Assembly: GCA_963748825.1 (NCBI GenBank)
Contig: CAVVKN010000004.1
Coordinates: 64,001-128,000, forward strand
Source of the DNA: Methanotrichaceae archaeon
Lineage (GTDB): Archaea; Halobacteriota; Methanosarcinia; Methanotrichales; Methanotrichaceae
Direction: 5' to 3'
DNA: 64,000 bases
Below the pieces are notes generated by a model that did no database searches, was not told the DNA's origin, and was given only the letters and a program-made list of their open reading frames with translations. Each line of letters opens with the position of its first letter. Positions within the stretch are counted from its first letter, which is position 1. Positions 12,696 through 29,202 of the stretch are shown here, piece by piece. A program made the translations under genes and the position numbers.

Positions 12696-12894
12696 GCAAC
12701 TACTCCCTTTCTTCCCCTGCTAAACTATCCCTTGCCAGGATCGCGATTCACGATCCGGACTGATTTAAATAAGACTAAATCCCTTCTCTGCCTTTTTTTA
12801 TATTTCTATCTATAAATGCGTTTCGGATGTTTAGGAAAAGAATCCATCGCAGACATAATTATTGTTTTATAGCTCAATAGATATACTTGACAGT

Positions 12895-14103
12895 ATGGAC
12901 CCGTTCCTCGCCTTTCTGGCAGCGGTAATTTTCGTCAGTCTGATCATACCCAGGCTCGGGCCGTTCTTGAGTTTAGTCATCTCCGCTATCGCCTTTGGCC
13001 TCCTGGTGGGCATGGGTGAAGAGGTGCTTGGATATGTGTCCACGGGCCTATCCCGGATCTTTTCCACCCTGGCCATAGTAGTATTCAGCGGTGCCCTGCT
13101 AGCAGAGTATCTGCGCAGAACGGAGAGCTTAGAGCGAATCGTTGCCGACCTGGGGCGACTGGCCGACAAAAGCCTGCTCATCGGGGGAGCGGCCGGTTAC
13201 CTCATCTCGCTGCCCGTGATGTGCAGCATCACCGCCTACATGATTTTGCAGCCGGTGGTAAGCGGCCTGGCCGGAAAAGACGGCGAGAACGGCAAACGGG
13301 CCCTTTTCATGACGGCAGCCTGCTCCATAATTTCTTTCAACCTCATCTATCCCTCCCCCGTCATGATCACACTCTCCACAGGTCTAGGGGCGGAACCACG
13401 CGATCTGCTCATGCGCGGCATTCCTATCTCGCTGGTTTTGTTCGCCCTGGCCTACATCCTTATGAAGCATTTTTTCCCAGCGAAAACAGAATCAAGAGAG
13501 ATCAGAGCCCCTGCTAAAATGAGCCGATCACGTGCCTGGGCCCCTCTGCTTGTACCAATAGCCCTGATCTTATTTGGCGGCCTGCAGGAGCAGACGCGCA
13601 TTTTGGCAGATCCAGGCGTAGCACTGCTCCTGGGAGCCATGCTCTGTTTGGCACTGGAGAGAAAGAAGATGCAAGAGCTGATTCATGTAGCCTCGCGAAG
13701 ATCCGGCGTGATATTGCTGGACCTATGCGGAGCGGGTGCTTTCGGCTATGTGGTAGCGCAAAGCGGCCTATCTCAGGAGATCTTCCGCCTGGGCCATTTT
13801 CTGCCCGCTCTGCTCCTGCCCTTCCTGGTATCTGCCGCCCTGCAGCTCGCCCAGGGCTCAAGAGTTGTGACGGCAACAGTAGCCACTCAGATCATGGCAA
13901 GCTATCCCCTGCCTGCGGTAACTTTAGCCCTGCTCATCGCGTCAGGAGCGTTCATGTTCTCCTATGTCACCGATCCTTACTTCTGGCTCATCAAGAGCTC
14001 CACAGGGGCGAGCATGAAGCAGACGGTTCTGGGATACACTCTGCCCCTCAGCCTGCTGGGCCTGGCCGCCTTCGCGCTAGCTGCAATATCGTCGATATTA
14101 TGA
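12895..14103 (+). CDS. GntP family permease
   Basis: Polytopic membrane protein with LQLAQGSRVVTATVA and SYVTDPYFWL (GntP-type signatures). Confidence 0.85.
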   Translation: MDPFLAFLAAVIFVSLIIPRLGPFLSLVISAIAFGLLVGMGEEVLGYVSTGLSRIFSTLAIVVFSGALLAEYLRRTESLERIVADLGRLADKSLLIGGAAGYLISLPVMCSITAYMILQPVVSGLAGKDGENGKRALFMTAACSIISFNLIYPSPVMITLSTGLGAEPRDLLMRGIPISLVLFALAYILMKHFFPAKTESREIRAPAKMSRSRAWAPLLVPIALILFGGLQEQTRILADPGVALLLGAMLCLALERKKMQELIHVASRRSGVILLDLCGAGAFGYVVAQSGLSQEIFRLGHFLPALLLPFLVSAALQLAQGSRVVTATVATQIMASYPLPAVTLALLIASGAFMFSYVTDPYFWLIKSSTGASMKQTVLGYTLPLSLLGLAAFALAAISSIL

Positions 14104-14184
14104 GGAGATACTATGGGCAGGGGTCTGAGATGAAAGCAGCTGCAGAGGATGGCAGCATTTCCAAGAGAGAAGGTGCAAGTCACA

Positions 14185-14258
14185 AAATTGTGTAATTAGG
14201 AGGGAGGCAAAAGTCCTGAAACATAGGAGGGAAAGAAATGAGTCTTCGACCTTTGCCA
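14185..14258 (-). ncRNA. Candidate hairpin sRNA with two anti-SD (UCCCUCCUA) motifs
   Basis: TATA CTTAAATA (RC of 14282-14289) about 24 nt upstream; 10-bp stem GGCAAAGGUC/GACUUUUGCC with a G-U pair possible only on the minus strand; ends in AAUUUU. Confidence 0.55.
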
Positions 14259-14373
14259 ATCTAACTATACGTCAATCGCCGTATTTAAGGATTTCGTTCA
14301 CTCCGGTTAAAGAGTCAGGATTTAGAATTCTGTATCTGGCATGCATTTGGGAGTCCTCATCTGTGTTTTGCAT

Positions 14374-15174
14374 TCAGGATTTCGCCAGATCAAAGACCCA
14401 ACGGCAGACTCCGGGGGCAACATTGCCGCAGCTGCGAGCTTGCATAACCACCAGGCCCAGATCTTCGTAGCTCTTCTTGAGCGGCTCGATCTGGTGGCGC
14501 TTCTTGAAGGTATAAAAGTGCAAGCTTCCCTTGGATTTCACCAGGGGCAATACTGTTTCCAAAATCCCGTCTGCTCCGTAGGGCGCAGGAATGACGGCCC
14601 TGTGGAAATCCTTCCGGAGCAGCTTTGCCATATGAAAGGCATCGGCGTTTATTATCGCTATCCTCCTTTCCACTCGATTTCGCCGGGCGTTCTCCGCCAG
14701 ATAAAGGCATGCTTCGCGACTTTTCTCCAGTGCCAGGACATGGGCGCCCCGAGCGGCCAGGGGAATGGCAAATGGTCCCACGCCCGAGAAAGGAAGCAAC
14801 ACATCCTCACCGGCCACGACCGCTGCCGCCACCCTCATTCTCTCGTAACCGAGATGGCTGTTAAAGAAGACATTTGCTACATCCAGACGGTAGAGAAAGC
14901 CGAATTCCTTATGAATGGTGATGGTATCACCGACACCGGCCAGTAGCTCGAAGCCGGCCACCCTTCTCTCACCTTGCAGCTTGGAGGTCTTATTCAGCAC
15001 GGTATGAATGCTCTTGCCAGAAGAGAGCACAGCCCCAGCAATCTCCTTCTTGTAAGATGCCAGCTCCGGGGCAAGGGAGAGTATGGCAATATTCCCAATG
15101 ACATGAAAGCGATCCGATAGCCTGCTCAAGCACTCCTGTGGCACAACTCCTTGCAGCTTCTCTTTGAGGCGCAT
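14374..15174 (-). CDS. Trm5/Taw2 (Met-10+-like) class I SAM-dependent tRNA modification enzyme
   Basis: FHVIGNIAIL, IHKEFG..RLDVANVFFN..LGYERMR and PFSGVGPFAI motifs. Confidence 0.88.
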   Translation of the reverse strand: MRLKEKLQGVVPQECLSRLSDRFHVIGNIAILSLAPELASYKKEIAGAVLSSGKSIHTVLNKTSKLQGERRVAGFELLAGVGDTITIHKEFGFLYRLDVANVFFNSHLGYERMRVAAAVVAGEDVLLPFSGVGPFAIPLAARGAHVLALEKSREACLYLAENARRNRVERRIAIINADAFHMAKLLRKDFHRAVIPAPYGADGILETVLPLVKSKGSLHFYTFKKRHQIEPLKKSYEDLGLVVMQARSCGNVAPGVCRWVFDLAKS

Positions 15175-15399
15175 TATATTTAGTCCGTTAGGCTTTGCTT
15201 TGTCATTTCGTTGGGCCTTTGGGCCCTGATCTATCCATTTATTTTGGCAATATCTTGGTTTTGCAGCCTTATCTACATGCCCTCATGGGCAAAGCCGGCA
15301 TATCCATCCGTGGGAAGGGCTTTTCTCACCAACTTGGACAGGGCATGGATAAACCCATTTTTAGTTCAGGATAAACAGCCAAATGATCCCATCATCTAT

Positions 15400-16726
15400 G
15401 TGAACTACCGCGTCCTGAAGGGCGCGGCTTCCCACTTCATCGCCAATACTTGCATCACAGATATGCGATGTAGTGGTTTTGGCTCTATGGGCGCTACGGG
15501 CTGTTCCATCCCTGCGAAGAATATGTTCCTGGATGCATTGTAGTCTCGATCACATGAGAATCCGCAATAAGGACACTCATGTACTCGGACTGATAGGTCT
15601 TTTTTCACGATGCTTCCACAAACAGAACACTTTTGTGTGGTGTTCCTGGGATCTACTCTTATCAGCTTTCGACCAGCACTTTGAGCCTTGTACGAAAGCA
15701 TGAATATGAACTTAGACCAGGATGCATCATGAATGCTGCGATGCATGCCAGTGTTATGGCCTTTCTCTTTCAGGCCTTTGACATCAAGATCTTCAACACA
15801 AATGAGATCAAAGTTATTGATATAGGTCCGAGATAACTTATGCAGGAAATCATCACGTTGGCAATTGATTCTCTTATGCAGCTTCGCGATCTTATCCTTG
15901 ATTGCTTCGCGATTATTTGATCCCATCTTGGCTCTGGCTAGCTTTCTTTGTAGCTTTGCCAGTTTATCAGCAGATTGCTCGGCACATCTTGGATTCTCTA
16001 TATTATTGCCTTCGGAGTCAACCACGAAGGAAGTCAAACCGACATCCAGACCTACCGCTTCCTCGGTTCCTGGTAACGGCTGTGGTTCCCGATCGGCCTG
16101 GACTATGGCAAACCATCTCTCGCCTTCTCTCTTGATTATGACGGCTTTGATGCAACCTTCAATCTTTCGATAGATTTTGATCCGCATATCTCCTATCTTG
16201 GATAAATGCAATAGGCTGCGATCTTGATCAACCTTGAAACCAGATTGGTTGTAATTCAGGGTGTTGTACCAACCATATCCCTTGAAGCGAATATGTCCGA
16301 TCTTTCGGCCATTCTTTTGGGAAGCCGAGAGTCCTTTGATATTAGACCAAATAGTATAATTCACCATCTGAAGAACTTTTGTGTAGACCAGATTCAGCTT
16401 CGGATTTGTGAGCTTCAAAGAAGGAATCATGTTCTGAGTATCGTAAGTCTTGAGTTTGATGCCATTCTTCTTAGCATCATTCAGGTCTTGGAGGAGTCGA
16501 TTATAGAGCCACCTGCAAGCATCCAAATTCTCCGCTAACTTCCATTGGGTGATCTTGTTAGGAAAGATAGGATACTTGTAGCAGATCATCAAACGAATAT
16601 AGACATGCAAAACTAATATTTATATCAGTTGAGCGCGGCGTGAAAGTAATCATGGCAAAGGACTCCGCTTTCATCCCCACCCTAAAGGATGGGGACTTCC
16701 CGCTTCGTCCTTCGCAATCCTACAAG
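15400..16726 (-). mobile_element. IS200/IS605-family (IS1341-type, TnpB-only) insertion sequence
   Basis: tnpB; right end CCGCGCCCTTCAGGACGCGG hairpin then TAGTTCAC (boundary about 15400); left-end hairpin TCCCCATCCTTTAGGGTGGGGA at about 16674-16695; no tnpA; left boundary approximate. Confidence 0.85.
15405..16589 (-). CDS. tnpB: RNA-guided endonuclease TnpB
   Basis: N-terminal HTH-like region; RuvC residues GLDVG, VEDL and DRDYNAS intact; Zn ribbon CSVC..CPYC. Confidence 0.95.
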   Translation of the reverse strand: MICYKYPIFPNKITQWKLAENLDACRWLYNRLLQDLNDAKKNGIKLKTYDTQNMIPSLKLTNPKLNLVYTKVLQMVNYTIWSNIKGLSASQKNGRKIGHIRFKGYGWYNTLNYNQSGFKVDQDRSLLHLSKIGDMRIKIYRKIEGCIKAVIIKREGERWFAIVQADREPQPLPGTEEAVGLDVGLTSFVVDSEGNNIENPRCAEQSADKLAKLQRKLARAKMGSNNREAIKDKIAKLHKRINCQRDDFLHKLSRTYINNFDLICVEDLDVKGLKEKGHNTGMHRSIHDASWSKFIFMLSYKAQSAGRKLIRVDPRNTTQKCSVCGSIVKKDLSVRVHECPYCGFSCDRDYNASRNIFFAGMEQPVAPIEPKPLHRISVMQVLAMKWEAAPFRTR

Positions 16727-27179: not shown

Positions 27180-27381
27180 AAACGTCATTCACTAGTCAAA
27201 TTGCGGCGGCACGCCACTGTCAAGTACTTTCCTCTAATTTTTATGTACTAGATAAAAAAAGGAAAGCGTATTTACATCTTTTGTTAAAGTTAGAGTACTG
27301 AGGGTAACTTTTATAACTGAACGAAGAGTCGAACCACTGAAGTGCTGACGCACTTGAGGTAAGAAGGAGGGAGGTAGAAGG

Positions 27382-29202
27382 ATGGAGCAATCATCGCAGA
27401 AAGCTCGTATCAAAGTCATCAGCGAGCATATCACTAATATTTTCTCAAATGAGAAAAATGTTCTGATTGCATTGATGCTCTTTGGCCTACTCTGTCGCCT
27501 TTTCAACCTGGCCACTCCTCTTCTGGATTATCATAGTTGGCGGCAAACTGACACAGCAGCCATAGCCAGAAATTTTTATTACAATGGATTTAATATTTTT
27601 TATCCGCAAATAGACTGGGGAGGGGCCGGCCCGGGATATGTTGAAGCAGAATTTCAATTAGTTCCATTTATAATTGCTATATTTTATAAAATATTTGGAG
27701 TTCATGAATATGTAGCCCGGCTTGTAATCATAGCTTTTTCAGTAGGTTCTATTTATCTTCTTTATAAAATGGTGCGCATTTACTACAGCAGAAGGGTAGC
27801 TATCTTCAGCGCAATTTTCTTTATTATATCTCCTATGGAGCTATATTTTGGCAGGACCGTTATGCCAGATTCAGCCATGATTTTCTTTTCGATTGGTTCA
27901 CTATATTTTTTTAATAAATGGACCAATGACGAAAAAAATGGCTCATTGATTTTGGCGATAATCTGCACAACCCTTGCCTTCCTTGTAAAGATATCCACGC
28001 TATATTTGGGATTGCCTTTGCTCTGGTTGGCATACACTAAGTACGGAAAGAGGTTTTTATTCGAACCAAAGCTCTACATCTTCACTATACTTATATTAAT
28101 TCCCCCAGTTATGTGGTATTATTTTGCCCATTCAGTTCTTGCCCAGTACAATACATTTGATTTTTGGAACCTTGGCAGCGGGAGCAAATTTGCCAGCCTC
28201 GAAACGCTTACTGATCCGTGGATTTACACAACTCTCGCCACAAGGTTGGTAATCTACATATTCACGCCAGTCGGGTTGCTGCTATTTATCTACGCACTAT
28301 CTTTGAAGACGAAGCTCAAGGATTACGTATTTCATTTCTGGGTCCTAGCCGTAATCATCTTTTTTTTGCTGGTTCCTCTTGGCAACATTGGCAATGACTA
28401 CTACCAACGAGCATTGATTCCTGCCGTAGCAGTCTTTGTGGGAAGAGCTCTCTCTGAGGTGTATGAAAAAAAGAAGATATTACCATTCATTCTTGTTGCT
28501 TTCATATCGATATCATCCGTTTACTATATGGCCCCCGCATATGATCAAGGTTATGTAATCCTTGATGCAGGGACTATGGTAGATAAGGTAACCAGCCAGA
28601 ATGACCTAATAATAACAACCTCATGGATAGGCTCGAGTCCAAATATATTATATTATTCAAATAGAAAAGGCTGGGTAGTTCCAGCGGAAAGATGGTCAGA
28701 GGAGACCATTGAGCAGATGAAAGTACAGGGTGCAAAATTCTTGGTGATTGCTCCACAGTCATTGCTTTCAGATAATCCCCAATTTGCCAATCAAATCTTC
28801 AGTAATTATAGGTCGCTCATTGGTAGTAATTTCGTGATATTTGATTTGTCTCTGCCAAGCGATATAAACCGCTCACCAAATCAGACTGATATAGCCTTCA
28901 AAGGCAGTGGTGCACTCGTCGGTGGAAATATGGAAGAAAGCACCTCAGGTCTCCTGAATATAACCTGTTATTATAATAGATCTGATGTAAATATTAATAC
29001 AAATAGAATAAATGGAAAATATTACGTTCTTGGGGTTGATTTTATGGATAAAGACGGTCAAATAGTACGTGAGAATCGATTCTTCACCAGCGAACTATCC
29101 CCCAGTGGCATCACAAAGAATAACTATGTGACTTCATTGTCTTCAGATGAGAAAGCGAAGATATATGATGCTCAAGTAAAACTTGGCGAAATAGAATTCT
29201 AA
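27382..29202 (+). CDS. GT-C/ArnT (GT39-like) polytopic glycosyltransferase
   Basis: HSWRQTDTAAIARNFY, EAEFQ, many TM helices, YYSNRKGW and a C-terminal soluble domain. Confidence 0.88.
   Translation: MEQSSQKARIKVISEHITNIFSNEKNVLIALMLFGLLCRLFNLATPLLDYHSWRQTDTAAIARNFYYNGFNIFYPQIDWGGAGPGYVEAEFQLVPFIIAIFYKIFGVHEYVARLVIIAFSVGSIYLLYKMVRIYYSRRVAIFSAIFFIISPMELYFGRTVMPDSAMIFFSIGSLYFFNKWTNDEKNGSLILAIICTTLAFLVKISTLYLGLPLLWLAYTKYGKRFLFEPKLYIFTILILIPPVMWYYFAHSVLAQYNTFDFWNLGSGSKFASLETLTDPWIYTTLATRLVIYIFTPVGLLLFIYALSLKTKLKDYVFHFWVLAVIIFFLLVPLGNIGNDYYQRALIPAVAVFVGRALSEVYEKKKILPFILVAFISISSVYYMAPAYDQGYVILDAGTMVDKVTSQNDLIITTSWIGSSPNILYYSNRKGWVVPAERWSEETIEQMKVQGAKFLVIAPQSLLSDNPQFANQIFSNYRSLIGSNFVIFDLSLPSDINRSPNQTDIAFKGSGALVGGNMEESTSGLLNITCYYNRSDVNINTNRINGKYYVLGVDFMDKDGQIVRENRFFTSELSPSGITKNNYVTSLSSDEKAKIYDAQVKLGEIEF

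Follow-up and report, generated by a model that had tools for sequence, protein, structure and literature searches.

What, if anything, is encoded in the 270-nt spacer between two converging genes of a Methanotrichaceae genome, and on what might its product act? The spacer lies in a stretch of 64,000 nucleotides (the window), and an earlier note, made from the letters of that stretch, had placed a candidate small RNA (sRNA) gene in it, proposing that the minus strand encodes a hairpin whose loop displays anti-Shine-Dalgarno and anti-start-codon sequence. Methanothrix species are among Earth's most important acetate-consuming methane producers and are hard to grow, and we know of only a handful of archaeal sRNAs with a known mechanism.

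Anatomy of the element

The spacer is bounded by a GntP-family permease gene (12862-14103, plus strand) and a TRM5/TYW2 methyltransferase gene (14374-15174, minus strand), whose coordinates and strands agree with the convergent gntP and trm5-like flanks of the earlier note. The TATA box, 24-nt spacer, stem and loop that it had read on the minus strand matched exactly when we re-read the sequence. We list the parts of the element below by window position.

14297-14291, minus strand: BRE-like ACGAAAT, part of the archaeal core promoter (14282-14297)
14290-14282, minus strand: TATA box CCTTAAATA of the core promoter, with CTTAAATA at 14289-14282
14281-14258, minus strand: 24-nt spacer between TATA box and stem, CGGCGATTGACGTATAGTTAGATT
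14281-14270: palindromic box CGGCGATTGACG, between TATA box and start site; family consensus CGnCAATTGnCG
14269-14258, minus strand: 12-nt leader TATAGTTAGATT
14257-14248, minus strand: 5' arm of the stem, GGCAAAGGUC (DNA GGCAAAGGTC), from the RNAalifold consensus
14247-14216, minus strand: 32-nt loop GAAGACUCAUUUCUUUCCCUCCUAUGUUUCAG, mostly unpaired in the predicted fold
14242-14225, minus strand: seed CUCAUUUCUUUCCCUCCU, with its core CUCAUUUCUUUCCC at 14242-14229
14215-14206, minus strand: 3' arm of the stem, GACUUUUGCC (DNA GACTTTTGCC), from the RNAalifold consensus
14205-14197, minus strand: tail UCCCUCCUA (DNA TCCCTCCTA), the second anti-Shine-Dalgarno (anti-SD) motif
14187-14184, minus strand: T4 run TTTT
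14259-14184, minus strand: predicted transcript of ~75 nt, its 5' end expected at ~14259-14257 and its 3' end close to the T4 run

The stem comprises 10 pairs, among them the G-U pair to which the earlier note had drawn attention and which would be A-C on the plus strand. The repetition of the loop motif in the 3' tail was likewise borne out: TCCCTCCTA occurs twice in the 64-kb window, at 14224-14232 and 14197-14205, both times within the element. Taken as a single sequence, the hairpin and its motifs stand weakly above chance. The minus-strand fold (-17.8 kcal/mol, z -1.95) was equalled in stability by 11 of 200 shuffles, the stem is absent from the plus-strand fold (z -0.58), and two or more occurrences of TCCCTCCTA in the window, where 0.56 would be expected by chance, were reached in 8 of 100 shuffles. 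The significance of the hairpin lies in its conservation across copies and not in these single-sequence statistics.

A multi-copy family in the Methanotrichaceae

Using the spacer as a query against its own genome, we recovered six more copies of a stretch of ~100 nt. A covariance model (R1) built from an alignment of 36 copies (A1) found 17 copies in this genome at E<0.01, one of which is the element itself, a unit of ~110 bp (14188-14297, minus strand). BLAST detected the family in 59 of 59 Methanothrix genomes, with 2-10 copies each, and R1 detected it in 74 of 74 other Methanotrichaceae genomes from 15 genera, with 2-16 copies each. In three neighbouring families R1 gave weak single matches, in 3/4, 2/2 and 6/67 genomes (the last at E 0.002-0.009), and in 3 genomes of a fourth it gave zero matches. 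A TATA box, the box CGTCAATTGACG and the stem sequence are common to these out-of-family matches and the family, and one match carries a compensatory U-A to C-G change in the stem. The stem and, in most copies, the CCUCC motifs, for which the earlier note had proposed a covariance model from homologues, are conserved. Among GTDB species genomes, an exact degenerate pattern retrieved at least 115 stretches, and 113 of the 115 listed carry the label Methanothrix, Methanosaeta, Methanotrichaceae or Methanosarcinales, from which we take the source organism to be a Methanothrix. Two short contigs (L141 and L154) make up the rest and were binned as Micrarchaeota and 'uncultured archaeon'; with R1 they reach 65-93 bits, and they are probably Methanothrix contigs misplaced in the wrong bin.

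The family seems to be previously undescribed. Against Rfam 15, the region around the element (window 13000-15500) gave no match at E<=10 over the element itself, and 19 further copies, searched at E<=1, matched only tRNAs and Ocean-VII, the latter below threshold (23.1 bits, with a gathering score of 53.5) and on the opposite strand of one copy. The Rfam search for which the earlier note had called therefore yielded no family for this copy or the 19 others. Our literature search returned nothing on Methanothrix or Methanosaeta regulatory RNAs or on this element; the supplementary sRNA tables for Methanosarcinales, which were beyond reach, might list the weak single-copy relatives. The only Rfam match in the searched region was sub-threshold, to sot0042 (15407-15479, minus strand; 15.7 bits, with a gathering score of 88), at the 3' end of an IS605-type TnpB/OrfB gene (15405-16610, minus strand; Pfam OrfB_IS605, Cas12f1-like TNB and HTH). 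This match is as expected of an omega-RNA-like region and is unrelated to the hairpin RNA.

In all copies the parts follow one another in a uniform order: BRE/TATA, CG-N8-CG box, ~12 variable nucleotides, stem, loop, second arm and short tail. Loops are 25-50 nt long (median 32, n=57 copies); 51 of the 57 copies have CCUCC in the loop and 40 have it in the tail. Loop classes recur between genomes, with that of our copy accounting for 22 of 110 copies at 100 pattern-selected loci. Judged by their sequences, siblings are alike in promoter, box and stem and unlike in the loop. Members also occur head to tail: four lie at G000:C14:28259-28790 (L181 1501-2032), 120-180 nt apart from start to start, with no ORF between them and with a tRNA gene after the array (L181 2327-2398), and comparable tandem arrays are present in other genera (G086:C24:28170-28697; G079:C47:86799-87871). 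Five extra genomic sites of the stem 12-mers were judged to be chance occurrences, lying within coding sequence or having a partner arm that is at most degenerate (one site).

We examined the stem across 57 copies in an alignment that was fitted to the covariance model, which favours the structure; there, pairing is preserved in 98.9% of 564 cells, compared with 41-54% for slid controls. Covariation is weak: the stem sequence is nearly invariant, and double changes occur in 5 cells at 3 stem pairs. Of 500 shuffles, 13 gave at least as many such pairs, and none equalled the stem covariation score. The stem sequence itself, beyond its pairing, is conserved in at least three families of the class. 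Among 30 orthologues of this copy, conservation is selective. The loop segment UCAUUUCUUUCCC ranks highest, with 98.5% mean pairwise identity and an exact match in 27 of 30, followed by the 3' arm (98%), the 5' arm (96%), the tail (96%, with CCCUCC there in 29 of 30) and the promoter (87%). Identity falls to 72.6% in the linker, 59% in the leader, 55% in the post-tail sequence and 41.4% in the distal loop.

This pattern bears on whether the family is a dispersed repeat without RNA function, be it MITE-like, a promoter relic or a terminator hairpin common to converging genes. A multi-copy, sharply bounded, intergenic unit with an IS605-type TnpB gene 1.1 kb away would suit such an origin, but the unit ends lack terminal inverted repeats, the conservation inside the unit is uneven, unlike that of neutral repeats, and all 74 Methanotrichaceae genomes searched contain the unit, with relatives outside the family. 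In at least 10 relatives having both flanks, this copy keeps its gntP-like/trm5-like position, which argues against a recently mobile repeat. In a terminator, a conserved upstream BRE/TATA would not be expected, and the plus strand is without the stem. A functionless repeat is thus very improbable in our estimation; by sequence comparison, the element is a conserved, predicted small-RNA gene of a family-wide, multi-copy class.

Promoter, strand and predicted transcript

BRE/TATA is found upstream of the stem at a fixed distance in every copy aligned in A1 (promoter consensus in A2, CCGAAAnnTTTATATT). A CGAAA+TATA arrangement of this kind also precedes the two tRNA genes of the window, where the TATA box ends 23 and 30 nt before the mature tRNA 5' end. 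Because the stem of our element begins 25 nt past the TATA box, a tRNA-like geometry, the RNA would be expected to start at the stem foot (~14259-14257), 23-25 nt beyond the box. All one-sided changes in the stem are G-U pairs on the minus strand. G-U or U-G occupies 47 of the 564 stem cells (n=57 copies) and would mismatch (A-C) on the opposite strand; at pair 48-92 of A1, for instance, 28 sequences have G-U and 8 have A-U. The side on which the promoter lies, together with these 47 cells, places the RNA on the minus strand. The strand, promoter and 5' end near 14258 given by the earlier note accord with the fixed promoter distance, the G-U pattern and the tRNA promoters. The 3' end, placed near 14187-14184, is uncertain: only about half of the copies have a clear oligo-T terminator, with a T4 run no more than 35 nt from the stem in 14 of 30 orthologues and in 7 of 16 copies of our genome.

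The earlier note had also put forward an alternative in which the plus strand is functional, with TAGGAGGGAAAGAAATG driving the micro-ORF MSLRPLPI and the minus-strand RNA acting as its antisense. Read as its complement, the conserved seed does give the orthologues a strong SD sequence and a properly spaced ATG. The ORF is nevertheless 8 or 16 amino acids long among the 30 orthologues, and in 5 of them it is frame-shifted, without a stop in the stretch read, or without an ATG. Its conserved residues fall on the stem and the promoter box, and the ATG is missing there in most of the other 16 own copies. With a plus strand that lacks a conserved promoter and G-U pairs that favour the minus strand, we find the peptide scarcely credible.

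Metatranscriptome contigs from four data sets cover 14195-14300, promoter included, in a form that gives no strand, ends or level. One of them, of 89 nt, corresponds to 14202-14297, and others join trm5 to the element (14195-14428 in X2; 14120-14467 in X1). Contig coverage of both flanking genes is similar and low, as it is over the element, and the contigs may reflect DNA carry-over or trm5 read-through.

In the palindromic box, the outer CG..CG is 90-99% conserved (n=57 copies), all four genomic occurrences of the strict palindrome CGNCAATTGNCG are in family members, and the box is also present in the out-of-family matches L217-L219. Since the box has no loop for an RNA hairpin and lies upstream of the predicted start, we read it as a protein-binding site in DNA, probably an operator for a dimeric DNA-binding protein; as a promoter element common to the siblings, it points to a common regulator. 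Box-like palindromes occur outside R1 matches at G000:C25:53605, G000:C4:90896 (window 26896) and G000:C23:130343. The first is accompanied by a TATA-like sequence and CGTCGATTGCCG, and both of the others have CGGCAATTATCGCGATT after AT-rich stretches. Such sites may be other promoters under the presumed regulator's control, or family members that have diverged strongly.

Candidate targets, proposed function and known counterparts

The earlier note had described the loop as the exact complement of an SD sequence, a spacer and ATG, and we located that complement at a gene start in this genome. The seed CUCAUUUCUUUCCCUCCU is a perfect 18-nt complement of AGGAGGGAAAGAAAUGAG, which spans the SD sequence, spacer, AUG and two further nucleotides (+2) of gene G000:C9:270529, and the 14-nt core CUCAUUUCUUUCCC is complementary to two tandem paralogues upstream of it, making the tandem genes G000:C9:268210, 269435 and 270529 the predicted targets. 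The predicted seed duplexes have energies of -34.8 and -28.3 kcal/mol. When all 17 siblings were compared with the whole genome, this was the only 18-nt exact antisense match, the control maximum being 15 nt. The same comparison gave 14 antisense matches of at least 15 nt, against 1 in a complement-only control, although several of the 14 resemble stem arms or represent a single site counted once for each of three siblings. The target takes first place among 11,800 loosely defined candidate start regions. Hybridisation energy alone does not set it apart, its z of -4.7 being comparable to the best matches of the other 16 siblings (-3.8 to -5.1). Those best matches mostly fall at internal or doubtful starts or are antisense to the sRNA genes themselves, and the energy-based scan of all 17 siblings gave no convincing targets for the other copies. 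The seed of a copy from another genus, compared with start regions in its genome (G077), matched its own sRNA gene only.

The predicted target protein, 242 aa long, begins with a signal-like N-terminus, is Cys-rich in its C-terminal part and has no match in Pfam, NCBIfam, PDB sequences, a cluster look-up or the ESM Atlas. All 59 Methanothrix genomes searched contain its family, at 3-29 matches apiece. In our genome, the tandem cluster occupies G000:C9:268210-271257 and 274279-274989 (L253, L008), its genes being 99-100% identical. From these sequences, the target appears to represent an abundant, uncharacterised Methanothrix family of secreted proteins. We recovered 52 start regions from 29 of 30 fetched target-family loci. 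The target 14-mer GGGAAAGAAATGAG is present in 34 of the 52 (at 20 of the 29 loci), a 13-mer in 38 and the full 18-mer in 4, and the sequence further upstream of the starts differs between paralogue types.

The complementarity could in part reflect common descent, with the loop an inverted copy of a start region. We favour function over such an inverted-duplication relic because the complementarity persists even though adjacent positions of the loop have drifted.

A start region within the window shows complementarity to siblings. TAAGAAGGAGGGAGG, at 27360-27374 on the plus strand just upstream of a 606-codon ORF (ATG at 27382), is exactly complementary, over 15 nt, to the 3' tails of G000:C2:105128, C17:25981 and C23:266421, and the start of this ORF is a possible target of the three tails.

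Family members adjoin target-family genes in other genomes, in the same orientation. At L285 (G074:C31:18700-19500), a different sibling bearing our copy's seed, as CUCAUUUCUUUCC, stands ~500 nt before a gene with a matching start region, GGAAAGAAAUGAG, and at L283 (G001:C25:5900-6400) a member precedes a target-family gene by ~60 nt. The latter gene is seemingly without a standard ATG at the aligned start. We count this adjacency in favour of the proposed target. Such proximity also raises the question of whether the element is a cis-acting promoter-plus-leader cassette, its CCUCC folding back on a downstream SD sequence, of which our copy would be a stranded remnant or a part of the trm5 3' UTR. 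The L283 arrangement fits this, as do some other copies just upstream of a co-directional gene (one, in our own genome, ~76 nt before an SRP54-like ORF) and the RNA contigs continuous from trm5 through the element. A purely cis-acting leader is inapplicable here, however, because the RNA runs into the end of the converging gene, with nothing downstream to regulate. At least three of the first seven own copies likewise converge with a neighbour, the four copies of the tandem array have no intervening ORF, and the orthologue, its seed conserved, has stayed in this gene-less spacer in at least 10 genomes. We judge a cis-acting cassette to be distinctly unlikely.

Is masking of start codons a property of the whole family? 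CAU stands 5' of CCUCC in 16 of 56 loops, where 10.9 would be expected and where 122 of 2000 shuffles reach 16; as a general family feature, anti-start-codon sequence is thus not significant. Of the trans-acting, ribosome-binding-site (RBS)-masking regulator that the earlier note had envisaged, the core was strengthened by a concrete candidate target, the 18-nt match and the genus-wide conservation of both partners.

Other features of the motifs would suit a different role. The genome's own 16S rRNA, which ends in GGAUCACCUCCUAA at four rRNA loci, has the tail sequence CCUCCUAA at its 3' end, and the longer motif CCCUCCUACAUCC, which exceeds the needs of SD pairing, is recurrent in many loops across genera. 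The genome shows no excess of 9-mers able to pair with the loop motif (19 and 15 found, 22 expected). The RNA might then be real and mainly protein-bound, its stem (GGCAAARGUCGA / GACUUUUGCC) forming a protein handle in place of a naked antisense repressor, and its CCUCC motifs either guiding the protein or mimicking the 16S 3' end and titrating the factor that binds it. A stem conserved beyond its pairing across at least three families, with arm identities of 96-98%, would agree with this, whereas a conserved seed facing a conserved target start region is what an antisense mechanism predicts. We regard a mainly protein-bound role as unlikely; a protein-bound particle and an antisense repressor are, however, compatible, and the near-invariant stem, CCCUCCUACAUCC and the identity of the tail to 16S rRNA leave room for a protein partner. 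A K-turn, as bound by L7Ae, was considered at the stem-loop junction and rejected by eye, the motif not fitting.

Our preferred reading, to which we assign a probability of roughly 0.55, is that the element is a self-contained sRNA gene whose loop masks specific mRNA start regions in trans, repressing translation. A BRE/TATA promoter with a palindromic box, its probable operator, would drive a ~75-nt RNA starting at the stem foot. The 32-nt loop and the 3' tail would each expose UCCCUCCUA, the complement of the Shine-Dalgarno sequence, and the loop would pair with the translation-initiation region of specific mRNAs, keeping the ribosome off. For this copy, the targets would be the tandem secreted-protein genes, matched over 14-18 nt from SD sequence through spacer to AUG. 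Two features of RBS-masking sRNAs are found here: a C-rich anti-SD motif exposed in the unpaired loop and tail of the predicted fold, and extended complementarity to a target start that is conserved in relatives, with energy z-scores that are unexceptional.

One may also picture a modular 'handle plus guide' system, in which the invariant stem, its sequence kept in at least four families of the class, binds a protein, paralogue-specific loops guide it to start sites and the box co-switches up to 17 genes. We consider this doubtful; if true, it would amount to archaeal protein-assisted translational control by a battery of guide RNAs, for which there is no described counterpart. The RBS-masking sRNA of our preferred reading, for its part, would offer an entry point to post-transcriptional control in Methanothrix. 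The family is large and easily recognised, occurring in every Methanotrichaceae genome searched, R1 can be used for annotating its genes, and this copy comes with a specific, testable candidate target, the multi-copy secreted proteins.

Several bacterial sRNAs invite comparison. The C-rich or UCCC sRNAs of Firmicutes (Listeria LhrC1-5, RsaE/RoxS and the loops of S. aureus RNAIII) are encoded by several near-identical genes, some in tandem, and their loop and tail C-rich motifs pair with SD regions, blocking initiation. They are unrelated in sequence to the Methanothrix RNA and have sigma-type promoters and Rho-independent terminators, in contrast to its BRE/TATA and box. CyaR and other enterobacterial CCUCC-loop sRNAs carry the ribosome's anti-SD pentamer in a hairpin loop; unlike the Methanothrix family, they are bacterial, Hfq-dependent and single-copy.

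Among archaea, sRNA41 of Methanosarcina mazei, which is credited to Buddeweg et al. in 2018, is reportedly ~120 nt long, single-copy and Methanosarcina-specific. The Methanothrix RNA differs from it in being ~75 nt long and forming one hairpin, with 2-17 siblings per genome that have a common stem and promoter box. Compared by description, the two are alike as intergenic archaeal sRNAs of related methanogen orders with a single-stranded region that would mask RBSs: a conserved single-stranded region of sRNA41 has been proposed to do so, lowering protein and leaving mRNA unchanged (PMC5867862). The same review describes loop 2 of M. mazei sRNA154 as an anti-RBS hairpin loop that masks the RBS of glnA2 mRNA, within a two-loop RNA that also stabilises other mRNAs (PMC5867862). 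Its likeness to the Methanothrix RNA lies in the anti-RBS sequence in a hairpin loop, and it is set apart, on that account, by its two loops and by not being a multi-gene family. By analogy, then, the closest counterparts in mechanism would be the RBS-masking sRNA41 and loop 2 of sRNA154 of M. mazei.
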